Positions 17,565 to 49,962 of a stretch of DNA of 64,000 nt are shown here, in pieces (positions within the stretch are counted from its first letter, which is position 1; the number at the start of each line of letters is the position of its first letter). The translations under genes and the position numbers were made by a program. Origin of the DNA: Candidatus Amesbacteria bacterium GW2011_GWC2_45_19. Lineage in GTDB: Bacteria > Patescibacteriota > Microgenomatia > CAZETR01 > Amesbacteraceae. A model generated the notes under the pieces. That model was not told the DNA's origin. It made no database searches and saw nothing but the letters and a program-made list of their open reading frames with translations. The DNA is taken from the NCBI GenBank assembly GCA_001001555.1, contig LCKS01000004.1, forward strand, positions 36,130-100,129, in the 5' to 3' direction.

Positions 17565-17586
17565 CTCTCAATAACTCCCTCTCATT

Positions 17587-17610
17587 CTCCCTCTTAATCT
17601 AAGAGGGAGA
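17587..17610. repeat. palindromic hairpin TCTCCCTCTTA-atc-TAAGAGGGAGA overlapping the last codons and stop of the phosphoesterase gene (related to the CCCCCTCCTAA hairpin family)
   Basis: Perfect 10-bp stem; the minus strand reads ...SLLD* through it. Confidence 0.5.
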
Positions 17611-22671: not shown

Positions 22672-23421
22672 TTAGGAAACGGTGGTGCCGGAAAAGACTT
22701 TGGGGGTGTACCAATCGGGAGACGGGTTAGTTGGTTCTTGGTTATTGGTTATCTGCGAGTTACTTGGTTCTGGAGTGAAGCCGTCGTGGCGGCGGGCACC
22801 CTGGCGCATAAGAACTGCGGCGATTTCAAAAGTATCGGCCGTGACATTAGCCGTAAAATTGGAGGTAGATTTTTCCAGTCCGGCTAAGAGATTAGAGGCG
22901 GCATCATTAGAAATAGGGAGCTTGAGAGTTTCGAGAAGGCGGGTGACTTCCTCGGATCCAGCCAGAGAAAAGTGTTTGGTTTGAGCAAAAACTTCCGGAA
23001 CTTCCGCTCCGGCCACCAGAATGATCAGATCGGCCTGGGCGCCGCCAGAGATGAAATTTAATTTGCGGTGGTCAAGACCGGGGGTGTTGGGTTTGGGAGT
23101 GATAACTAAATTCAGCTCCCCCCTATCATCTAAATGATAACTGACTTTATCCACAATTTCCGTCTGGCCGGGAAAGGTGATCACCAGGTTGCGGCTGCCA
23201 AAGTTAGAAATGACCGTATCTGCTCCCACTAAGCGGTGAAATTCCACGGTCATGGGATCGGCACAGGTCACAGAGGCGGGTTTGCCGAACTGATCCAGGG
23301 AGAGTTTGAGAGCCAGGGCGGCGGCCACGGCATCATAGCCAGGGTTTTGGGGAAGAAGAATGGCTACCGAACGGGCAGAATCCAGCAGGCCCTTAAATTG
23401 ATTGGTATCAACTGGCGCCAT
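22672..23421 (-). CDS. DHH-family (NrnA-like) domain protein with degenerate catalytic motifs
   Basis: Occupies the nrnA-like slot between infB and rpsO; AILLPQNPGYDAVAAALAL resembles DHH motif I but lacks the Asp residues and the DHH triad. Confidence 0.35.
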   Translation of the reverse strand: MAPVDTNQFKGLLDSARSVAILLPQNPGYDAVAAALALKLSLDQFGKPASVTCADPMTVEFHRLVGADTVISNFGSRNLVITFPGQTEIVDKVSYHLDDRGELNLVITPKPNTPGLDHRKLNFISGGAQADLIILVAGAEVPEVFAQTKHFSLAGSEEVTRLLETLKLPISNDAASNLLAGLEKSTSNFTANVTADTFEIAAVLMRQGARRHDGFTPEPSNSQITNNQEPTNPSPDWYTPKVFSGTTVS

Positions 23422-24796
23422 GGATAGTGACGGCTATTATAATATCACCGGTCTTGAAGTCAACTGGCGGAGAAAAAACGGCCCCGAATTCCTGGCCGGT
23501 TTTAATTTTTTCAACTTCGGCTTTGCCAATTTTAAGAGATTTTATTTTGGTAATTTTGTCACCGATTTTGATCGAGTTGGTTTTGAGTATTTCTCCTTCG
23601 GTGCATTTACCCCCGGCCACCCGTAGATTGTCTATTTTGAACCCGGCCAGAATCTGGGCCCGGCCGGTAATGGTTTCGGTCTCTTGAGGATGGACTAATT
23701 TTTCTATGGCATCTAAAAGCTCATAAATAACATTAAAAGAGTGGATTTTAACTTTGTCTATTTCGGCTAGTTTGGCGGTGGAGCCGGGAATTTTGACATT
23801 AAAAGCAATTATTTGAGAATTTGTGGAAGTGGCAAAAAGAATGTCAGATTCGGTAACTTCGCCAGTAGCTGACGAAATTAGATTGACTTCCGGGGGTAAC
23901 AAAGAAGTAATGGCCTCAAGAGAACCGAGAGTGTCGGCTTTGAGGATAATTTTGACTATATCACCCTCTCCCTTCGGCCTGCCTGCCGGCAAGGCAGGGT
24001 TTCCCCCTCTTAAATTAAGAGGGGGAACGAAAGGGGGTGATATTTTAGTGATAGCAGAACTTAGTACAGACCCTACAGGGACGACGGAAGTGAGGCCGAG
24101 AATTTCGACGGGGGTAGAAGGCAGAGCAGGATTGACAGACAGGGCCTTGGCTTTACCGACCAATTTGTCTGAAAATAGCTCCTGGCCAACTTTTAAAGTA
24201 CCGTTTTTGACGATGCACATAGCCAAAGGGCCGCGGCGGGTATCCAAGTGAGATTCAAGAACAATACACTCTAGAGAGCCGGAAGGGTCGGAGACTGGAG
24301 GTTGGAGGCTAGAAACTAGATGGACCATCTCCAAAAGTTCAGGCAAGCCCTGGCCGGTTTTGGCAGAAACGGGAATGGCAGGTACGTCACCTCCAAACCC
24401 TTCGACTAAAACTGCGTTTTCAACCAATTGGGATTTGACGGTGTCTGCGGAGGCCCCGGGAAGGTCCATTTTATTAATAGCCACAATCATGGGAATACCG
24501 GCTGATTTAATGGTGGCTATAGATTCTTTGGTCTGGGGCATGACCCCGTCTACGGCGGAAATTACCAAAATAGCAATGTCGGCAATATCAGCTCCCCGGC
24601 TGCGCATTTGAGAAAAAGCAGCGTGTCCCGGCGTGTCGATGAAAGTGATACCGTTCGTCTGGAAAGCGTGAGTGCTTTGGGTTATACCCCCGACTTCACG
24701 AGAGGCGATGTTGGTTTTACACAGAGCATCAAGAAGAAAAGTTTTGCCATGATCTACATGGCCCAAAATGACAACGATAGGTGGTCTGGTTTGCAT
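23408..24796 (-). CDS. infB: translation initiation factor IF-2 (short form starting at the G domain)
   Basis: [28 protein letters not shown] GTPase motifs; 462 aa. Confidence 0.85.
   Translation of the reverse strand: MQTRPPIVVILGHVDHGKTFLLDALCKTNIASREVGGITQSTHAFQTNGITFIDTPGHAAFSQMRSRGADIADIAILVISAVDGVMPQTKESIATIKSAGIPMIVAINKMDLPGASADTVKSQLVENAVLVEGFGGDVPAIPVSAKTGQGLPELLEMVHLVSSLQPPVSDPSGSLECIVLESHLDTRRGPLAMCIVKNGTLKVGQELFSDKLVGKAKALSVNPALPSTPVEILGLTSVVPVGSVLSSAITKISPPFVPPLNLRGGNPALPAGRPKGEGDIVKIILKADTLGSLEAITSLLPPEVNLISSATGEVTESDILFATSTNSQIIAFNVKIPGSTAKLAEIDKVKIHSFNVIYELLDAIEKLVHPQETETITGRAQILAGFKIDNLRVAGGKCTEGEILKTNSIKIGDKITKIKSLKIGKAEVEKIKTGQEFGAVFSPPVDFKTGDIIIAVTIHGAS
23939..24022. mobile_element. 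RPE-like nested palindromic element (TIR TATCACCC/GGGTGATA; inner hairpin CCCCCTCTTAA-tt-TAAGAGGGGG plus CCTGCC-GGCAA-GGCAGG) inserted in-frame within infB
   Basis: About 84 bp (28 codons). Translated within IF2 as ...VPPLNLRGGNPALPAGRPKGEGDIV. A homologous element lies in grpE. Confidence 0.55.
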
Positions 24797-24797
24797 C

Positions 24798-25769
24798 TCA
24801 TTTTTCGCTCTTGATATCGATGTGATAGCCGGTGAGCTTGCCGGCTAGTTTGGCGTTTTGACCCTCGCGGCCGATAGCCAGAGACAGTTGATCGGCGGGG
24901 GCAGTAACAACGGCCTCAGCTTTTTTGGCATTGGCTTTGACGATCAGGCCGGTGGCGGGAGACAGGGCGGAGGCGATAAATTTCTCCGTCTCTTCACTAA
25001 ACTGAACTATATCTATTTTTTCTCCGTTGAGCTCACCGATAACAGCCTGAACCCGGACGCCTTTTTGGCCTACACAGGAGCCGACCGGATCTACCCCAGA
25101 TTGGTGGGAGTAGACGGCAATTTTGGTCCGGGATCCGGGGTCGCGGGCAATGACTTTAATCTCGACAGCACCGGAGTTGACCTCGGGAACTTCTCTTTTG
25201 AACAATTCCTTGATCAGACCGGTGTTGGCCCGGGAAACGATCACTTCGCGGCCACGTAAGGAGTCGCGGATACTGTCCAGATAAAAAGTCAGGCGTTGGT
25301 TGATGTGATAGTCCTCGGAATAGACCTGTTCGGCGGGAGGCATGACGGCCTCGGCCTTGCCGATATCCACAATGATTTCGTTGCCGATGAAGCGCAGAAT
25401 CATGCCGTTGACCAGTGTGCCTAAGCGTTTTTCATATTCGGTGACGGTGGCGGATTTTTCGGCCTCGCGGATTTTCTGCATGATAACTTGCTTGGCAGTT
25501 TGGGCGGCGATGCGGCCAAACCCCGGAGGAGTGATATCCAATCTTTTTTTACCCTTGAGAACAAATACCCGGTGGTCGCCTGTTTGAGAATCGAGGTCCG
25601 AATCGTATGTTTTAGTCTCGTCGTATTGGTCGGGATGGTCTTTTTTAAAGGCGGCGACAATGGCTTGCTTAATAGTGTCCAGGACGACTTGAGGATCCAG
25701 ATTGCGCTCATGCGCCACCTGATTTAAGGCGGAGGCAAATTCGGTTCTGGCTTGCAAAACTTTGGCCAT
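24798..25769 (-). CDS. nusA: transcription termination/antitermination factor NusA (short, no AR repeats)
   Basis: N-terminal domain, S1, KH1/KH2; 323 aa. Confidence 0.85.
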   Translation of the reverse strand: MAKVLQARTEFASALNQVAHERNLDPQVVLDTIKQAIVAAFKKDHPDQYDETKTYDSDLDSQTGDHRVFVLKGKKRLDITPPGFGRIAAQTAKQVIMQKIREAEKSATVTEYEKRLGTLVNGMILRFIGNEIIVDIGKAEAVMPPAEQVYSEDYHINQRLTFYLDSIRDSLRGREVIVSRANTGLIKELFKREVPEVNSGAVEIKVIARDPGSRTKIAVYSHQSGVDPVGSCVGQKGVRVQAVIGELNGEKIDIVQFSEETEKFIASALSPATGLIVKANAKKAEAVVTAPADQLSLAIGREGQNAKLAGKLTGYHIDIKSEK

Positions 25770-25801
25770 ACAGTGGCCAATTTTATCAGAAGCTGAGGCG
25801 T

Positions 25802-25841
25802 TATACCACCCCCACCCTCCCCCTCCTAATCTAGGAGGGGG
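25802..25841. repeat. left inverted repeat TATACCACCCCCACCCTCCCCCTCCTAATCTAGGAGGGGG (contains hairpin CCCCCTCCTAA-tc-TAGGAGGGGG)
   Basis: Inverted partner at 27011..27048; the hairpin overlaps the DUF559 stop (..LTPS*). Confidence 0.6.
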
Positions 25842-26190
25842 TAAGTTCCTTTCTAATCTGGTCCACTACTTTGTCTAAATTGGACTGAACTTCCCAATTC
25901 CAAAATCTAATAACTTTGATGTTAAAAGCCCCTAGATATCTGGTTCTATACGAATCATATTTATAATTTTGCTTGTGTTGCTCGCCATCGAGTTCTATGG
26001 CAAGTTTTTTCTCCGGACAGTAAAAGTCCAAAATATAAAATGTTACACTGTGCTGTCGGCGAAACTTAAAGCCGAGGCGGCTATTTTTCAACTTGCTCCA
26101 AAGCAACCTTTCTTCTCTAGTGCCATAGTTTCTTGACCTCCTTCGTTTTTGTTTGAGTTTAGGAGTATTAAAAATAAATTCTTTTCTCAT
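25831..26190 (-). CDS. DUF559 (Vsr/restriction-endonuclease-like fold) domain protein
   Basis: YILDFYCPEKKLAIELDGEQH core motif; AT-rich. Confidence 0.7.
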   Translation of the reverse strand: MRKEFIFNTPKLKQKRRRSRNYGTREERLLWSKLKNSRLGFKFRRQHSVTFYILDFYCPEKKLAIELDGEQHKQNYKYDSYRTRYLGAFNIKVIRFWNWEVQSNLDKVVDQIRKELTPS

Positions 26191-26260
26191 AAAACTGTAG
26201 TTTTATTTCCTTAATCTTACCAGTGCGCGCCTTTTGTGTTCAGGGTGTTAATATGATCGC

Positions 26261-27022
26261 ATGGTCAGTCGTTTGTATTCCGCTATATATTTATTGGAAA
26301 AATTATCTAATTTGGGGGCCATGAAGGTTAATATGCAGTATTTAACGAAAGGTGGCCCGGAATTAAATCACTTTATCGATCGTCAGGCACACCCTGCTAG
26401 AAATGAATATCTTGATATATGCAACCTTAAAAGATTTGTTGAGAGTGGCGAATATGTGATCTCAAATAAATATGTATGTATTTCGACTACATTTGAAACT
26501 TCCGATGTCAAATATAAGGCTTTTATTGGTCTTGATGTGGAGATCGGCGATGAGAAAGTAGTGTTTAATGTTGCCAAGTTTCTCGCACATAAATTAGGTA
26601 AATCGATTGATGTATTTAAAACAACGCGCGGTTTCCACTTTTTTATTCCTGATTTGGTATTTTCTGGTGATTTTGAGTACTTAACGAAAATATTTGAAAT
26701 TGCGAACGATGCTTCTTTGCGGATTGGAGACAAGTGGGTCGCAGGATATTTTGACTGTGTAAAAAAAGCAAAAACTTATAAAGATTTACAACAAATTTCG
26801 CGAGAAATATTAAACAATTTCGGACACTATCAAGCCAGAGGAAAATACACCTTCTTTGACTTAAGACATATCGCTCATGGCATGTTCGAATATGAACGTC
26901 AGCGGGGTATTTCTGATCAGAATAATGGTGTTAGAACACAATTGTTTTTTAGAATAACATCCAAGAACCACAACGATCATCCTCCGGTGTTTATAAAACA
27001 GTTTATTTATTCCCCCTCCTAA
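26261..27022 (+). CDS. hypothetical protein, possible archaeo-eukaryotic primase-polymerase (PrimPol/AEP) domain
   Basis: IGLDVEIGDE (motif I DxE), then about 28 aa later TTRGFHFFIP (motif II sxGxH), then an acidic motif III candidate; AT-rich; start may be an internal Met. Confidence 0.35.
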   Translation: MVSRLYSAIYLLEKLSNLGAMKVNMQYLTKGGPELNHFIDRQAHPARNEYLDICNLKRFVESGEYVISNKYVCISTTFETSDVKYKAFIGLDVEIGDEKVVFNVAKFLAHKLGKSIDVFKTTRGFHFFIPDLVFSGDFEYLTKIFEIANDASLRIGDKWVAGYFDCVKKAKTYKDLQQISREILNNFGHYQARGKYTFFDLRHIAHGMFEYERQRGISDQNNGVRTQLFFRITSKNHNDHPPVFIKQFIYSPS

Positions 27023-27048
27023 GTTAGGAGGGGGACGAGGGGGTGGTA
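27011..27048. repeat. right inverted repeat (hairpin CCCCCTCCTAA-gtt-AGGAGGGGG, spacer ACGA, then GGGGGTGGTA)
   Basis: Its reverse complement TACCACCCCCTCGTCCCCCTCCTAACTTAGGAGGGGG matches the left repeat at 25802; the hairpin supplies the ...SPS* stop of the 253-aa ORF. Confidence 0.6.
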
Positions 27049-27115
27049 CTAGAGAATGTCTGCTAATTCTTCCAGTAAACGTCTTTGTTCGTGGGAAAGA
27101 TGGGCGGGGAGATCG
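27049..27115 (-). pseudogene. remnant of dnaJ 3' end (diverged duplicate)
   Basis: Minus-strand translation VEHFYIDLPAHLSHEQRRLLEELADIL* versus DnaJ C-terminus DFYIRLIIDFPTHLSHRQKQILEEFERS*. Confidence 0.55.
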
Positions 27116-27221
27116 ATGTAGAAATGTTCCACCTAAGAGATGGAACTGCCTAACTATATTAAGCTAGGCGGTCTAATTGTTTATTGACATCTGGTCTTAC
27201 CCTTGTTAACATTAGTTTACA

Positions 27222-27827
27222 ATGGAACAGGGTGATGCGGGTGTTGCTGTTCCCGAAAAGGAAGCGGCCGATGAGACGTTAAGGCCTGTTGTTGACAGGT
27301 TGCTCCTTGACACGCATTTTCGGGAAGTTCCCCTCCCAGATAACTTTGATGGTTGGACTGGCGAAGATCTAAGGAAGCGCCCCAATGAATCTCTGAAGAG
27401 AATGCTTACCCAGGAGGCGGTTGGGGAAGTTCAACAGGCTTTGGGACTAAGTTTTGAATCTAAGTTTAGTGGTCACACTGGTCGCCCATTACCGAAGGCG
27501 GAGACAAAACAAGCTGTTCCTGATTATGAAAGTTGGTCTGCAAGACTAGAGGCTTTAAGAGGAGAAATGGGCGAGAAAGTAAATGAGGCGGAAGCACGAG
27601 GCGTGAGTGTTCCAAGATTTGACGCTGAAACGGGACAGCCCCTGCCCAAAAACTCATTAAGAGTTTATGAGGCCGTGCATGGCAGACGTCAGCCTCAAGA
27701 GGCACCTCCGTCTATGTCTGATCAAGAGGCTCTTGAAATGGGTCTTAGTGCCTTGAGGGAAATGAAGGCCATAAGGCGTGAAGACGAAGCTGCTAGGAAA
27801 TCCGGAGGACTACTGCCCAGATCGTGA
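27222..27827 (+). CDS. hypothetical acidic protein
   Basis: 201 aa, no recognisable motif; higher GC than the neighbouring cassette. Confidence 0.4.
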   Translation: MEQGDAGVAVPEKEAADETLRPVVDRLLLDTHFREVPLPDNFDGWTGEDLRKRPNESLKRMLTQEAVGEVQQALGLSFESKFSGHTGRPLPKAETKQAVPDYESWSARLEALRGEMGEKVNEAEARGVSVPRFDAETGQPLPKNSLRVYEAVHGRRQPQEAPPSMSDQEALEMGLSALREMKAIRREDEAARKSGGLLPRS

Positions 27828-27849
27828 GACGGTAATTTGGGTTACCAAC

Positions 27850-29262
27850 ATGTCAGAAACTACAACCTCAGAGGTTATGGTGCCAAAACAAGCTGCTGAA
27901 CTGGGATTAGAGTTGGTTTACACGGACGAAAGTTCGCACCCCCCATTTAACGTATTACCCAAAGCGTCTATCGGAATACAGAAAAACGGCGAGAAAGCAG
28001 AATTAATAAAAGTTAGCCCGGAACACGGGCGGGCGACGGCAGATGCCAGGCTATTGTCAACAGTCGTGTGGCGTGACGATTTTGGTATACCTTTTGGGTC
28101 GGTGGATTATAAGGGGAACGTCGTGGATGATGTGGTTATTGATACGGATCAAACCGATAAATTAAGGGTGTGTGGAATTAAAACAGGAAAGGTCACCAGA
28201 AGAATTATTGCGGCCTCTCGGGCCTTGAGAGGAATGGGGTTACCAACTGAGGCCATTTACAGGATGTATAAAATTACCTGGTTTCCCGAAAACGGTCGGC
28301 GGATAAGTCCAGAAGAATGGAGAAAACAACTACTAACAGAGCTTGAATCAGATATCGAATTTGCCAGAGAACAGCTGAGGAATCCCTCAACTTACGGCCA
28401 GAAAAAGGATGAACTAGAGGAGCTTTTGGCAAAAGCTGAAGAAGAGGTCAAATTTGTAAAAGGTTATTTGAAGCAGAATGACAATTTCTATGTTTTTGAA
28501 AGGCATCTACAAACACCGATTAGATTACGAGATATCCCGCACGCCAAGACCAAAAATGACTTTGAAAATCTGGCTAAGCAGAGCATGGAGTGGCTTGACA
28601 AAATTCTAACCAGGAGACAACGAGCGAAAACTCCGGTCTGGAATAAGTTGTTACGTAAATCTAAAGACTTATGTTTTGCGCTTTGGCCCTTTTCAGGAGA
28701 CGAAAAATTTGATTTTAATAACTCGGATCATTTATCTCGAGTGTTTGTTGAGTGGCTACCTGCTCAAATGGGACAATACTTAGCGAGGCTACATAAAAAT
28801 GGCTTGATTCATGGTTTTCCCCACTCACAAAACTGGTCCTTGGGAAGTCTTTACGACTTAGACAGTGTGTATGGCCCTGCGTTGGGAGATAACCCGAGAA
28901 CCGAAGATAATTTTGTAAAGGATGTAGAGATTGCGGCAAGAGCCGTCATGGATATCTTTGCTGTACGGGCCCCAGGTTTTGACTGTGTGGGATTGACGGC
29001 AAGTCACTATCTGGCTCAGACGATTCTTGGGCAAAACAAAGATGAACTGCCTTTGGTAAAAGCTGTAGCTAACTTTGAATACGGCTACTTGGAGGCAAGA
29101 TTTAGGAAAAAGCTGACTCCTGCGAATGTTGATGGGTATGTCAGGAGGTATATGCCCCAAGTAAAGGTCGGCGGAGACGTTGTGAGAAGTTGGGCTGCCG
29201 TAAATGAGAGAATTATTAATTTGATTAAGTCTAAACTTTTGGTCTTGCGGGAGACGGGGTGA
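27850..29262 (+). CDS. hypothetical large protein (weak kinase-like HG..H..N / DLD signature, central coiled coil)
   Basis: Probable start at MSETTT after the upstream stop (the track start 27778 overlaps the previous gene); LARLHKNGLIHGFPHSQNWSLGSLYDLDSVYG. Confidence 0.45.
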   Translation: MSETTTSEVMVPKQAAELGLELVYTDESSHPPFNVLPKASIGIQKNGEKAELIKVSPEHGRATADARLLSTVVWRDDFGIPFGSVDYKGNVVDDVVIDTDQTDKLRVCGIKTGKVTRRIIAASRALRGMGLPTEAIYRMYKITWFPENGRRISPEEWRKQLLTELESDIEFAREQLRNPSTYGQKKDELEELLAKAEEEVKFVKGYLKQNDNFYVFERHLQTPIRLRDIPHAKTKNDFENLAKQSMEWLDKILTRRQRAKTPVWNKLLRKSKDLCFALWPFSGDEKFDFNNSDHLSRVFVEWLPAQMGQYLARLHKNGLIHGFPHSQNWSLGSLYDLDSVYGPALGDNPRTEDNFVKDVEIAARAVMDIFAVRAPGFDCVGLTASHYLAQTILGQNKDELPLVKAVANFEYGYLEARFRKKLTPANVDGYVRRYMPQVKVGGDVVRSWAAVNERIINLIKSKLLVLRETG

Positions 29263-29265
29263 TAT

Positions 29266-30096
29266 TTAAGATCTTTCAAACTCTTCCAGTATTTGTTTTT
29301 GGCGGTGGGAGAGGTGGGTGGGGAAATCGATGATGAGACGGATATAGAAATCGCCGCGGTTGGCTACTCCACGGCCGGCCAGGCGAACCATGGTACCGGG
29401 TTGGGTGCCGGGGCGGATTTTAAGCTTTAAGTCCGCGTCTAAGGTAGGGACACTTGTGGTCCCTCCGAGAATAGCCAGGGTGAAAGGAATTTTGTGGTCT
29501 ATATAGATGTCTGCCCCATCGCGGCGGAAAATTAGATCCGGCTCAACTTCAAAAGTAATATCAAAATCGGTAAAACGCAGATGAGTACCGGTATCAGCGC
29601 CGGCGGGAATTTTAATAGCGTGGGTCCGGCCGTCAATGGTGACGCTTTCGGTACCGCCTGAAACTGCCGTTTTAAAAGGAATGCGCAAAGAATAATGAGG
29701 CTTGGCAGGCCGGCTGCGGCCAAAGGGCGAAGCGCCGCCAAAAAATTGTTCAAATATTTCAAAAGGATCGCCCATGTCCCCGAAAGGATTTTGTCCGCCT
29801 CCAGAAGTTGAATAGTAATATTGGAAAGGGCCTTGCTGTTGCCCGGCAAAGCCGGATCCGCCGGAAAAACCACCGGGCGGAGTGTGGCCGAATTGGTCAT
29901 AAGTTTGCTTCTTTTGAGAGTCGGAAAGAACTTGATAAGCCTCGTTTATTTCTTTGAACTTCTCTTCGGCTTCGGGAGACTTATTTTTGTCCGGGTGCCA
30001 CTGCATGGCCATTTTGCGGTAGGCAGATTTGATCTGGGCATCGGAAGCGCCTTTAGAAACACCTAAAATATCATAATAATCACGCTTAGCGGCCAT
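29266..30096 (-). CDS. dnaJ: DnaJ-like co-chaperone (J domain + G/F region + C-terminal domain, no zinc finger)
   Basis: DYYDILGV...HPDKN J domain with HPD; 276 aa. Confidence 0.8.
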   Translation of the reverse strand: MAAKRDYYDILGVSKGASDAQIKSAYRKMAMQWHPDKNKSPEAEEKFKEINEAYQVLSDSQKKQTYDQFGHTPPGGFSGGSGFAGQQQGPFQYYYSTSGGGQNPFGDMGDPFEIFEQFFGGASPFGRSRPAKPHYSLRIPFKTAVSGGTESVTIDGRTHAIKIPAGADTGTHLRFTDFDITFEVEPDLIFRRDGADIYIDHKIPFTLAILGGTTSVPTLDADLKLKIRPGTQPGTMVRLAGRGVANRGDFYIRLIIDFPTHLSHRQKQILEEFERS

Positions 30097-30211
30097 AGTT
30101 CAGCTTGACATTCTATGCTATTATAAATGTTGACAAGTAATTCCCCATGCGTGGGCTGCCGGAATGGTTGCTCGAATATAGCGTGTGGGGTTTTGTCATT
30201 TTTACGGAACT

Positions 30212-30847
30212 TCAAGCAAACAGAGAGCTTTCTCCGATAATCAGGGACTTAATAATATCATAGTAACTGCTGTCTCCATATTCGTACTTTCTAAAAATTG
30301 ACCAGCTAATAAAATCGGTCGCTTGTAAAGACTTCTCTTCGTGGGGAGTTTTTATTATTACCTGTAGTTTGTGTTTATGATTCACCTTGATCTTATCAGC
30401 CAGGTACGATTTGAAATTTTCGTTCAAAAAACGATTTGTTTCCTTTCTGGAAGCTATCAGTGTTAAATTGTCCAGAGGAACTAACTTATTTTCATAAATT
30501 CTATTCAATAGGATATTAGTTACATAGTTGTACAAGACACTCTTCTCTTCTTGAAGTTTGGTATAAACTTTCTTCTTGTTTAGATATATAACCATAATTT
30601 GGCAGTCTCTGCCTGCCAATTCCCGAAGTAATCGGAATCTGGTTGTGGGCGACTCTTTATGACAATGAAGCACTCCGCTTTTCTTTTTGTGAATTTTTTT
30701 AAGTCCCGTATGAATTTTTGATACTAATTTTTCAATTAGGCGTTTTTCCTTGCAAAATAGAAATGTGACCAAAAACCATTGAGTGGTTCTCTTTTTGCTA
30801 AAGTCAAAACCTAAGTCTCCACTCTCATCCATGAATATATACGCCAT
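30212..30847 (-). CDS. DUF3800 family protein
   Basis: N-terminal MAYIFMDESGDLGF (DESG motif); strongly AT-rich; the track start 30886 probably extends too far. Confidence 0.5.
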   Translation of the reverse strand: MAYIFMDESGDLGFDFSKKRTTQWFLVTFLFCKEKRLIEKLVSKIHTGLKKIHKKKSGVLHCHKESPTTRFRLLRELAGRDCQIMVIYLNKKKVYTKLQEEKSVLYNYVTNILLNRIYENKLVPLDNLTLIASRKETNRFLNENFKSYLADKIKVNHKHKLQVIIKTPHEEKSLQATDFISWSIFRKYEYGDSSYYDIIKSLIIGESSLFA

Positions 30848-31188
30848 CTTACTGGCAATTGTACCCCGCGAGTGCCAAATTGACAAATTTTAAACATTGA
30901 GTAAGATACGAATATATGAGTTCTCAAATCGAATATGTGCTAACACGAGAAAGAGGCACTTGGGTTGATTGGTTTGTTCGGATAACATCGGTGGGGTTTT
31001 TGGGTTGGGAGAAAAATCTGGTTTCTAATACATGGGGAATGACATCTGGACCCGATGTTTCTGCGCCCAGAAAATCAGGGAGTTTCTATTGGTGGTTTTT
31101 TGGTCTGGGATGAAAGTAGAGATTGTGGAAAAGACCGAAGGTTGATACAATTGAAGAAAGCTAATTGGCTTTATTTTTTTGACCTCTT

Positions 31189-33333
31189 ATGGCTGATGTA
31201 AAGACTACTAACAGGATGGTGCCGTTGGATCGGGTGCGCAACATTGGCATAATTGCCCATATCGACGCCGGAAAGACGACGACAACCGAAAGAATTTTGT
31301 TTTACACCGGGAAAAGTTACAAGATTGGAGATATTGACGAAGGAGACACACAAATGGACTGGATGGAGCAGGAAAGAGAACGAGGAATCACCATTGTTTC
31401 GGCTGCAACTACAACCTTTTGGACAGTAAACGACGCAAATTCTCCAGTGGAGGCGGGGTCGTATCGGATAAATATCATCGACACGCCCGGACACATTGAT
31501 TTTACGGCAGAAGTAGAACGGAGCTTACGGGTATTGGATGGGGCAGTAACTGTTTTGGACGCGGAAGAAACGGTACAGTCGCAGACAGAAACGGTGTGGC
31601 GGCAGGCGGACAAATATAAAGTCCCGCGGATAATTTTTGTGAATAAAGTGGATAAACTGGGAGCCAATTTCGAAGGGACAGTCAAAGCAGTCATCGACAG
31701 GCTAGGGGCCAACCCGGCGGTCATGGCCTATCCCATTGGAGTTGAAAATACTTTCCGGGGGGTAGTTCTACTTTTGGAGCGCAAGGCTTTAATTTGGCAG
31801 GGTGACGAAACCGGGGCCAAATTTGTAGAGGAAGAAGTGCCGGCAGAGATGAAAGAAGTGGTAGAGAAATGGCGCAGCCAGTTAATTGAGCAGATTTCAG
31901 AAACAGACGATGACTTGCTAAATAAATTCCTGGCCGGAGAAGAGCCGAGCATTACGGAGCTAAAAACTGCCCTAAGAAAAGCCACTATTGCCTATAAATT
32001 GGTACCCATATACTCGGGGGCATCACTTCGCAATAAAGGGGTGCAGCCGCTTCTGGACGCAGTGGTGGAGTATCTGCCCTCCCCGGTTGACATTGACCAG
32101 GCAAAGGGAGTCAACCCCAAAACTGGGGGTGAAGAGGTCAGAAAAACTATTAATGAAGAAAAATTCTGCGGGCTGGCGTTTAAGATCCAGACCGACCCGC
32201 ATGTGGGACGGCTGACTTATCTGCGGATTTATTCAGGAAAACTCACGGCCGGGCAGGGAGTGTATAACGCCACCAAAGACAAGGAAGAGCGGATTTCCCG
32301 AATGCTTCTGATGCACGCTAACAAGCGGGAAGAGATAGACGCGGCCTACACGGGAGAGATTGTGGCTCTGGTGGGGCTGCGGGAGACGAGTACAGGACAT
32401 ACTCTATGCGACAAAAGCGCACCAATTGTACTCGAGTCTATTACGTTTTCGGAACCGGTTATTTCTTTAGCTATCGAGCCAAAAACTAAACAGGATCAGG
32501 AAAAGATGGGGTTGGCTCTGAATAAATTATCGGACGAGGATCCAACTTTCCGGATCAAGTCTAACCTGGAAACAGGACAGACGATTATTTCCGGAATGGG
32601 AGAATTGCATTTGGAAATTATCGTGGACCGGATGAAACGGGAGTTTGGAGTGGAAGCGACCACGGGAGCTCCCCAGGTGGCATACAAAGAAACTGTCAGA
32701 AAAGCCGCTGAGGCGGAAGGAAAATATATCCGCCAGTCCGGTGGCCGGGGACAATATGGCCATTGCTGGTTGAGACTTGAACCGTTACCCCGAGGCGCAG
32801 GGTTTGAATTTGAGGACGAGATTAAGGGTGGGGCAATTCCAGCAGAATTCATCCCGGCTATTGAAAAAGGGGTCAAGGAAGCTATGGAAAATGGAGTATT
32901 GGCGGGTTTTCCGGGAGTAGATATGAAAGTCGCCTTATTCGACGGAACTTATCACGATGTGGATTCTTCGGAAATGGCGTTTAAAATTGCCGGTTCAATG
33001 GCGTTTCAACATGGGGTGAAATTGGCCGATCCGTGCCTTTTAGAGCCGATCATGAAGGTGGAAGTGTCCACCCCCGAAGACTATATGGGGGATGTAATTG
33101 GTGACTTGTCCAGCAAGCGGGCGCAGATTTTGGGAACTGACAAGCGGGGGCACTTAACCATTATTAACGCTTTTGTGCCCTTGGCCGAACTATCAGGTTA
33201 TGCTACCAAACTGCGGTCCATGTCCCAAGGCCGGGCCACCTATTATATGGAGCCATCCCACTATGAAGAAGTGCCCAAAAACATCGCCGAGAACATCATT
33301 GCTAAATCTGGTAAAGTGACAGCAAATGCTTAA
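31189..33333 (+). CDS. fusA: elongation factor G
   Basis: [27 protein letters not shown]; 714 aa. Confidence 0.9.
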
Positions 33334-49466: not shown

Positions 49467-49962
49467 ATGCTTTTATTTTAGCGGGTCTAATAACATAATT
49501 GTTAATTTTATAACCTTTAGTGACTATTTCTGCAATAGTATTATCGGGCTCTCCCGGCAAAGTTTCAAGACATTCGTGTATCTCGTGATTATATGAATCG
49601 CCTATTTTGGGAGAAATTTCCTGCAGACCTTCGGCTGTCAAGACGTCTCGAAATTGCTTAACGGCCATTTGCACCCCCTGATCTTGGGAGTGGATGGCGG
49701 CCAACTCCAAAACGTCTAGAGTGGGCAGAAGTTTGGCCATAATATTAGCCGTGGCGTAAGTGACAAAGTCTTTTTTGTCAGCGTCAACACGTTTAACCAG
49801 ATTATGATAATCAGCTAAGGCCCGTTTCCAGTTTTCTGTAAGGGTTTTAACCGTATCACCCTCGGCCTGCGGGCCACCCCCTCTTAAATCGAGCCTTGGG
49901 CTCGCGTCTGACGCCGTAAGAGGGGGATGGGGGGTGATATTGGGTGATTTTTTAGTCTTCAT
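49444..49962 (-). CDS. grpE: nucleotide exchange factor GrpE (N-terminal region carries in-frame palindromic element)
   Basis: [18 protein letters not shown]...; sits between hrcA and dnaK. Confidence 0.8.
49854..49939. mobile_element. RPE-like nested palindromic element (TIR TATCACCC/GGGTGATA, inner hairpin CCCCCTCTTA..TAAGAGGGGG) within grpE coding sequence
   Basis: Translated as ...[27 protein letters not shown]; homologous to the infB copy at 23939. Confidence 0.55.

Follow-up and report, generated by a model that had tools for sequence, protein, structure and literature searches.

DUF559 nucleases form a very large orphan family, whose member in Escherichia coli K-12 is YcjD. Repeats described as potential intrastrand triplexes (PIT, also named BoxC or TMECO) occur in E. 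coli and many other bacteria (PMC4666352); in E. coli they have been on record since 1992 (Bergler 1992; Hoyne & Maher 2000, 2002). Their E. coli consensus is CCCTCNCCC-N3-6-GGGNGAGGG-N3-GGGNGAGGG; an oligonucleotide of this class forms a stable triplex in vitro, and the loci that carry such repeats (TM loci) are more rearranged between E. coli strains (PMC4666352). The authors of this main survey never found mobility activity tied to TM repeats, and where it cites Hoyne & Maher 2002, PIT elements are said to have neither promoter nor terminator activity. DUF559 genes are enriched among predicted targets of programmed inversion, which are genes accompanied by inverted repeats (odds ratio 14.3; PMC9881135), and homing endonucleases of the Vsr fold and PD-(D/E)xK type, for example PDB 3R3P, have been listed with DUF559 (PMC3424549). 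Here we compare these systems with a 1.25-kb segment, or cassette, in which a DUF559 gene and a second gene lie between inverted repeats; it is part of a 64,000-nucleotide stretch (the window) of contig LCKS01000004.1 from Candidatus Amesbacteria bacterium GW2011_GWC2_45_19.

We consider it probable that the segment is one copy of a widespread and apparently undescribed module: a DUF559 nuclease gene of ~120 aa, bracketed by inverted triplex-type repeats of ~35 nt. The repeat of this module has a C-rich arm and, across a short loop, the purine arm complementary to it; after a spacer of 2-8 nt comes a G-rich tail in mirror order to the purine arm. A cargo slot extends from the start codon of the nuclease gene to the distal repeat, and is filled here by an archaeo-eukaryotic primase-like (AEP-like) gene and in a sister lineage by a 2H phosphoesterase gene. 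The DUF559 domain, the triplex-repeat class, the AEP fold and in-frame palindromic repeats (the Rickettsia palindromic elements, RPEs) are already known; there is a substantial chance that the pairing of nuclease and repeats is a new element class. Our literature searches, made in a limited library, found no paper that links DUF559 or ycjD with these repeats or with BoxC, and none that gives the repeats an enzyme partner.

A DUF559 gene between inverted repeats

The host of the segment is a groundwater bacterium of the candidate phyla radiation (CPR), and Rifle metagenome contigs match the locus at 99.98% identity. Extra DNA separates nusA (24798-25769, minus strand) from dnaJ (29266-30096, minus strand), and the cassette is its first part. 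The GC content is 35.6% in the interior of the cassette, 48% in the window and 52% in nusA; the interior has a foreign look, and the AT-rich character that the initial annotation had given it is borne out. The inverted repeats of ~40 bp proposed at the same time are also present, as arms of ~37 nt at 25804-25841 and 27011-27048. The left end repeat, of triplex type (minus strand), reads CCCCCTCCTA-gat-TAGGAGGGGG-agggt-GGGGGTGGTA, and the right one (plus strand) reads TCCCCCTCCTA-agt-TAGGAGGGGGA-cg-AGGGGGTGGTA. A repeat search paired the inverted arms as 25810-25841 with 27012-27043 (32 nt, 84%) and 25804-25822 with 27030-27048; the pattern CCCCCTCCTAANNTAGGAGGGGG, with up to three mismatches, matches at 25819-25841, 27012-27034 and also 24003-24025 (0.01 matches in shuffled sequence). 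The two ends form hairpins of 10-11 bp (DNA fold -11.1 and -11.7 kcal/mol; z = -3.4 and -2.8). In each repeat, 10 bp of C/G hairpin lead into a G-rich tail in mirror order to the purine arm; this tail points outward at both ends and is unpaired in the Watson-Crick fold. Both ends finish in TA, which belongs to the conserved tail.

The nuclease gene (25831-26190, minus strand; 119 aa, Vsr-like PD-(D/E)xK) matches PF04480 at 111.8 bits (E = 1.9e-32; cutoff 20.6), with residues 12-116 aligned to positions 3-108 of the 109 in the profile, and the DUF559 call of the initial annotation is thereby upheld. Against the YcjD-type NCBIfam model NF007294 the match is full-length (E = 1.3e-25) and, at 89.7 bits, below the 218-bit equivalog cutoff: the protein shares the architecture of YcjD without belonging to the same orthologous group. 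All 22 invariant columns of a 12-sequence subfamily alignment are kept, including R16, R20, T24, E27, W31, R45, Q46, D55, E66, D68 and H72; putative catalytic roles may be assigned to D55, E66, D68 and H72 from the Vsr fold. PHROG profiles annotated as homing or HNH endonuclease also match the protein (1e-6 to 1e-9), and it bears a weak resemblance to methyl-directed restriction nucleases. Searches of the cassette proteins with Pfam, PHROG and NCBIfam profiles gave no match to a transposase family. The TAG stop codon of the gene is in the hairpin loop of the left end repeat, and the last codons of the 253-aa gene on the other strand (SPS and stop) run into the right hairpin; both cassette open reading frames (ORFs) end in PS and a stop codon within a hairpin.

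Mirror symmetry of the repeats

For a genome scan, one genome per species, we used a 28-base exact pattern with variable loop and spacer, CCCCCTCYTA-N(2-32)-TARGAGGGGG-N(2-8)-GGGGGTGRTA, which retrieved at least 111 stretches. Among the matches listed, the exact unit is found in Patescibacteria (Saccharibacteria, Amesbacteria, Zambryskibacteria), Geobacterales (including the isolate Oryzomonas japonica), Bacteroidota (Flavobacteriales), Ignavibacteria, Nitrospirota and others. The three blocks of 10 nt are constant; the loops and spacers vary freely. Mirror covariation is kept in 115 of 116 instances among these matches: CTCTTA/TAAGAG goes with GTGATA, or CTCCTA/TAGGAG with GTGGTA. The tail reproduces the purine arm in mirror order: G faces G, and A faces either T or A. 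Diverged copies at these loci keep to this rule as well, in eight or more further sequence types such as AGGAGA-Gn with Gn-TGAGGT, AAGAGA-Gn with Gn-TGAGTT, AAAGA-Gn with Gn-AGTT, and TAA-Gn with Gn-TTA. Where the arms are asymmetric, i.e., not mirror images of themselves, the mirror rule accounts for 105 of 369 and a direct-repeat rule for 25.

Ordinary duplication or inversion does not make mirror symmetry. An antiparallel purine-motif triple helix has such symmetry as its code, and the architecture of the repeats fits this code (G*G-C, A*A-T, T*A-T). A detector that applies this rule (pyrimidine arm, purine arm and third strand with short loops; these three triplets; at most one mismatch) passes both cassette ends and the copy in infB described below, and finds 4 matches where shuffled windows give ~0.3. 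According to evidence cited in PMC4666352, RNA does not form purine-motif triplexes; should a triplex underlie the mirror rule, the relevant molecule would therefore be DNA, presumably in a transiently single-stranded state. To judge from their sequences, the repeats belong to the same class as BoxC/PIT/TMECO and to a different sequence family: they do not match the TMECO consensus, their stems being CCCCCTCCTA / TAGGAGGGGG / GGGGGTGGTA.

Other identities were considered for the repeats. The initial annotation had named terminator hairpins present at many gene ends as part of what would overturn it, together with the lack of an AEP fold; the repeats are indeed present in many places, but they have no T-run, G-rich sequence follows each hairpin, and none of the four sites that a terminator scan called in 25600-27300 is at a repeat. 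An integron cassette (attC) was set aside, the repeats being inverted and no integrase lying around the site in the window, and so was a G-quadruplex, as a solo unit has two free G-runs. The arms also resemble the anti-Shine-Dalgarno sequence, or 16S 3' end.

DUF559 genes and repeats at other loci

Nineteen of the 111 motif-selected loci, among the matches listed, encode a DUF559 protein 40-55% identical to that in the window, and ~14 of these genes directly adjoin the motif. In a reverse test, the more powerful of the two, we retrieved 80 metagenome loci by DUF559 peptide patterns alone. A triplex-type motif lies within 150 nt of the gene in 66 of the 80, and on both sides of it in 45. Further out in these loci, beyond 300 nt from the gene, 134 kb of background contain 13 motifs (0.1 per kb), a density at which ~3% of loci would be expected to have a motif by chance. 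Of the flanking pairs that show one clear orientation per side, 23 are inverted and none is direct; at 32 of the 80 loci the motif encloses the stop codon. Moreover, identity between DUF559 proteins is higher for those with a motif class in common than for those without (54.7% vs 47.6%), a difference that is reached by none of 500 permutations.

The typical DUF559 module measures ~0.45-0.5 kb and has no second gene, and its stop codon is often in the downstream repeat. Compact units of this kind (L219, L247, L235, L174, L229) consist of a repeat, ~15 nt, an ATG and a ~120-aa ORF that ends, with its stop codon, inside a second, inverted repeat. One Saccharibacteria metagenome-assembled genome (MAG; L155 1118-1620) holds a whole repeat-DUF559-repeat unit in frame in leucyl-tRNA synthetase (LeuRS), between GAEIEF and VFTTRADT. 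Further downstream (L155 2692-2727) a solo repeat is translated as ITPRPPLNLRGG. E. coli K-12 conforms to the pattern too: its ycjD gene (L260, NC_000913.3 1351030-1351840) ends in SPSP and a stop codon in a degenerate CCCTCTCCC...GAGGGGG hairpin, and the ycjD-fabI spacer contains a duplicated ycjD 3' end followed, ~170 nt downstream, by BoxC/TMECO.

History of the dnaJ-nusA site

Three relatives found via NusA were instructive with respect to the site between dnaJ and nusA. In L259 (82% NusA identity) the gap between the two genes is 19 nt, which is an empty site. In L257 (93% NusA identity) it holds an unrelated 106-aa ORF without repeats. In L255 (91% NusA identity) the dnaJ stop codon adjoins the same outer repeat as in the window, after which come a 2H-phosphoesterase (LigT-like) gene on the opposite strand, a DUF559 gene (89% protein identity), a second repeat and nusA. 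Homology between the window and L255 amounts to 91% over the dnaJ end and outer repeat and 85% over the DUF559 gene, inner repeat and nusA, and it breaks exactly at 27010, the inner edge of the hairpin, and at 26190, the DUF559 start codon. It follows that the repeats and the nuclease gene are the conserved frame and that the gene between them is exchangeable cargo; one edge of the slot is the divergent intergenic spacer at 26191-26260.

The displaced dnaJ remnant mentioned in the initial annotation was recovered at 27065-27118, where the identity to the present dnaJ 3' end is 78%. The remnant (27049-27118, minus strand) ends in IDLPAHLSHEQRRLLEELADIL and a stop codon that directly adjoins the outer end of the right repeat. 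By comparison with L255, in which a dnaJ of this type is still intact, it is the 3' end of an older, L255-type allele, and it was left behind when two further ORFs, of 201 aa (orf201) and 494 aa (orf494), and the present dnaJ end came beyond it. In another relative, L261 (544-1891), dnaJ is immediately followed by a different DUF559 gene (56% identical), which has a triplex motif at the stop codon; either the dnaJ-nusA spacer has been occupied by DUF559 more than once, or the gene diverges fast.

The main rival to the module is a recombination hot spot, or cassette exchange: triplex repeats would stall replication and provoke breaks, and adjacent genes (nuclease, AEP-like, 2H, orf201 and orf494) would time and again be gained, lost and swapped through recombination, either illegitimate or homologous. 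This account keeps the association of nuclease and repeats and drops transposition, DUF559 being either a resident that processes or tolerates the structures (repair-like, or by addiction) or part of a variable conflict or defence islet. Several observations agree with it: the spacer differs in every relative examined (empty; 106-aa ORF; 2H plus DUF559; AEP plus DUF559 plus orf201 and orf494; the L261 DUF559), the dnaJ 3' remnant shows a recombination scar, E. coli strains differ by more rearrangements at TM loci (PMC4666352), and DUF559 has its weak likeness to methyl-directed restriction nucleases. What a hot spot leaves unexplained is the consistent bracketing by inverted repeats with a stop codon in the repeat, the whole in-frame unit in LeuRS, and the multicopy gene-less back-to-back pairs described below; the cargo proteins, moreover, have no match in PADLOC. 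We judge this account to be unlikely, though it is the alternative that we take most seriously.

The DNA of orf201 and orf494 (27119-29265, between the old dnaJ remnant and the present dnaJ) may have come in as a second insertion, and the replacement dnaJ end with it. Neither ORF has a match in Pfam, PHROGs, NCBIfam or PADLOC; the orf494 stop codon is in a tail-like GGGGTGATA (29256-29265), which adjoins the dnaJ stop codon. Just upstream of dnaJ, an AT-rich DUF3800 gene (30212-30886; 32-37% GC) also has the look of a horizontal acquisition. An Rfam scan of 23000-31500 (E up to 10) returned no relevant family.

Repeats without a nuclease gene

The window contains further copies that are not accompanied by a nuclease gene. 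A repeat of the T subtype in infB (23959-24042, plus strand), TATCACCCTC ... CCCCCTCTTA-aat-TAAGAGGGGG-aacgaaa-GGGGGTGATA, is read in frame within the linker of translation initiation factor IF2 as ...PPLNLRGGNPALPAG..., and a repeat in grpE (49854-49939, plus strand), which has a 30-nt insert in its hairpin loop, is translated in frame at the GrpE N-terminus. A further motif of triplex type, at 17572-17610 (minus strand), is of a different sequence subtype and reads TCTCCCTCTTA-gat-TAAGAGGGAGA-atg-AGAGGGAGTTA. All four of the IF2 orthologues that we compared (window, L255, L257, L259) have a triplex-type repeat in the linker between domains II and III; these repeats are of two sequence subtypes, a CCCCCTCTTA type and a CCCTCTCCTA type, which suggests replacement or conversion of an old insert. 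A split infB in GCA_001002655.1 (L018 7851-7937) was considered as a case of repeat excision and rejected: infB is called as two genes there for want of ~85 nt that the metagenome contigs have, apparently an assembly gap, which is elsewhere in the gene and has nothing to do with the repeat.

Gene-less copies also occur as back-to-back pairs, of which an Ignavibacteria MAG has at least four (L163 3186-3248; L197 447-510 and 3484-3547; L236 2758-2821); they take the MITE-like form (MITE, miniature inverted-repeat transposable element) TACCACCCCC-hairpin-7 nt-hairpin-GGGGGTGGTA. A loose half-motif scan of viral contigs gave scattered single matches that we judged to be background, and the pattern was then tightened.

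This dispersal raises the possibility of coincidence: structural or terminator-like repeats of BoxC type, spread genome-wide at gene ends, would flank this pair of horizontally acquired genes by chance and have no functional tie to DUF559. Most repeats among the matches listed are without a DUF559 gene nearby, in the window they stand at other gene ends and even inside genes, and prior literature found no associated mobility genes, all of which a coincidence would predict. It would not predict a motif within 150 nt at 66 of 80 DUF559 loci where ~3% are expected, nor flanking pairs that are always inverted, nor a motif class that co-varies with the DUF559 protein; repeats that simply serve gene ends are further disfavoured by the missing T-run, the missing terminator call and the statement, cited in PMC4666352, that PIT elements have no terminator activity. 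Coincidence is accordingly very unlikely in our estimate. As to the palindromic repeats being the ends of a unit, the proposal made for this segment holds in a generalised form, in that DUF559 genes are bracketed by them in many phyla, but they are not private ends of the cassette.

The 253-aa cargo gene

The gene in the slot (26261-27022, plus strand) has an alternative start at 26321, which is used by public gene calls, and its family is rare: there are 3 relatives in 5.8 billion clustered proteins, and 12 at E up to 1e-3 in 1.84 billion representatives. The protein has no sequence match in Pfam, PHROG, NCBIfam or PDB; one homologue touches the Pfam AEP-like family PF24387 at a below-threshold E = 0.02. 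An AlphaFold model derived from 14 family members has a predicted local distance difference test (pLDDT) score of 88.6 and a predicted template-modelling score (pTM) of 0.89. When this model was compared with the PDB by Foldseek, the top 21 matches were all archaeo-eukaryotic primases or LigD-Pol (Pyrococcus PriS, the AEP domains of vaccinia D5 and mpox E5, LigD-Pol, human Pri1); the matches are weak (E = 3e-3 to 0.2; TM 0.3-0.42), and viral structure matches were primases too. The motifs DVEIGDE and RGFHFF are present, with D92, E94 and H126 nearly invariant, and D137, G188-H189 and D200 invariant, in the 14-member family. The conserved DxE, H and D recall motifs I-III of the AEP superfamily (PriS, LigD-Pol, PrimPol, poxvirus D5/E5 N-terminal domains), from which the protein differs in having no helicase, zinc or PriCT partner domain. 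We accept, on the strength of the model, a remote AEP-like fold, and the primase guess of the initial annotation thus survives at the level of the fold but not as a sequence profile above threshold.

Homologues of the 253-aa protein occur in five other contexts as solitary genes with unrelated surroundings, and a search of these five contexts found neither a DUF559 neighbour nor repeats beside them. In three of the five the homologue adjoins tRNA genes (L001 2170-2260; L009 2640-2730; L254 1-60), with no integrase in view, and in L009 a DDE_Tnp_1 insertion sequence lies upstream of the AEP-like homologue, with an unusually long direct duplication of ~58 bp at the flanks (30-90, 1620-1680). PADLOC assigns the cargo genes to no defence system. 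On our reading the AEP-like gene encodes a rare, divergent, stand-alone protein of predicted primase fold that was acquired as cargo, and is not part of a replicon.

These observations bear on the reading with which the segment was first presented, a self-mobilising or plasmid-derived unit of two genes in which nuclease and primase-polymerase would act together, one cutting and the other priming or replicating, with the palindromes as their private ends. Both genes do lie between the repeats in AT-rich DNA and end in hairpins, and the 253-aa protein does have a predicted AEP-like fold with conserved acidic and histidine residues. As a functional pair, however, nuclease and primase find no support: the AEP-like family is solitary in its five other contexts, the typical DUF559 module has one gene, the repeats are in at least 111 unrelated places, and among contigs that carry these proteins we found neither another nuclease and AEP-like pair nor an extrachromosomal form. 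The swap of cargo, by which the sister lineage L255 has a 2H phosphoesterase in the same slot, largely refutes the pair, and we give this reading scant credence. Of the small mobile unit there remain the empty site in L259 and the inverted repeat ends, with the AEP-like gene as cargo instead of partner. Least probable of all is an invertible, phase-variable segment that would switch the nuclease, the cargo or the downstream nusA-infB operon: the inverted geometry and the 14-fold enrichment of DUF559 among predicted inversion targets (PMC9881135) speak for it, but there is no invertase nearby, all 24 contigs read have one orientation, and the repeats, at ~37 nt, are themselves palindromic.

A possible mechanism

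We hypothesize that the ends of the module fold into a hairpin or triplex on transiently single-stranded DNA, and that the DUF559 nuclease recognises the folded ends and nicks them. Nicking would drive the copying or insertion of the module, either by transposition or by a homing-like repair; it would also spread gene-less derivatives, that is, solo repeats and back-to-back pairs, in the manner of MITEs or of repetitive extragenic palindromic (REP) sequences. Flanks that become prone to recombination in this way could then capture and swap cargo.

Several points weigh against a nuclease that mobilises its own repeats. At 92 of the 111 motif loci, among the matches listed, there is no DUF559 gene within ~4 kb, and since most copies of the motif are without one, another agent could spread them. 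The window has a single DUF559 gene, and DUF559 genes within one genome are ~50% identical instead of near-identical, which argues against recent bursts of transposition. No target-site duplication could be defined, even by comparison with the empty L259 site. All 24 population contigs read, from many samples, have one arrangement, with no excision or inversion variants, and here the module has apparently been inherited vertically since the split from L255 (85% nucleotide identity). The triplex of E. coli was not detected in vivo by dimethyl sulfate (DMS) footprinting (PMC4666352). The motif detector itself imposes the mirror rule, so that the enrichment rests on the within-locus background and on direct-rule controls, and it is from their association that an interaction of nuclease and repeats is proposed.

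With these points in mind, we put forward a broader proposal tentatively, as one that is rather more likely to fail than to hold: DUF559 nucleases, including YcjD, would be the missing enzyme partners of BoxC/PIT repeats, and the two together would constitute selfish elements of a new class, with ends that are recognised as folded DNA and not as duplex sequence, with gene-less spread through many phyla, in-frame insertion into IF2, GrpE and LeuRS, and capture of cargo. The pairing, strong and seen across phyla, suggests a relation like that of REP and RAYT, and it would bring together two old orphans, the BoxC-type repeats and DUF559. If this is true, short Pro/Gly-rich inserts in essential CPR proteins would be translated repeats, and a small natural cargo slot would be found beside such nucleases.

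Comparison with known systems

With insertion sequences and MITEs the module shares terminal inverted repeats (23 inverted pairs and no direct ones across the DUF559 loci), and it differs from an insertion sequence in having neither a recognised transposase family nor multiple near-identical copies. Free-standing homing endonuclease genes provide another parallel, as they too are small nuclease genes that are present patchily at a conserved intergenic site, and the in-frame insertion into an essential gene is also in their style; unlike them, the module involves no intron or intein and has structured inverted terminal repeats. RPEs are palindromic repeats that are translated in frame in essential genes, as are the repeats in the IF2 linker, the GrpE N-terminus and LeuRS. 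RPEs are, however, 100-150 nt long, and the repeats described here are 35-85 nt long, unrelated in sequence, in other hosts, and associated with a nuclease.

The closest likeness of the repeats themselves is to BoxC/PIT/TMECO: a C-rich arm, a loop of 3-6 nt, a G-rich arm, a loop of ~3 nt and a second G-rich strand, ~37 nt in all, with conserved stems and variable loops, frequent inverted pairs of two subtypes, and instability of the locus. In contrast to TMECO, the stem sequence is not CCCTCNCCC/GGGNGAGGG/GGGNGAGGG and the hosts are CPR bacteria and many other phyla; TMECO is reported to be always intergenic (PMC4666352), whereas these repeats are also in frame within coding regions. The papers on BoxC/PIT/TMECO attach no mobility function to them, and the repeats here are tied to a nuclease gene that they flank.

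With regard to the arrangement of gene and repeats, the nearest counterpart is the REP/BIME and RAYT system (REPtrons, REPINs), in which a small gene likewise lies in inverted structured repeats that have many dispersed, gene-less copies. A REP is a plain hairpin with a GTAG tetranucleotide, and the repeat described here has in addition a mirror-image third strand; RAYT is an HUH Y1 enzyme of IS200/IS605 type, and the enzyme here is Vsr-like PD-(D/E)xK. The comparison is thus one of working and not of membership: in both systems, if our proposal is correct, a single-copy domesticated enzyme would maintain hairpin repeats that are not autonomous.

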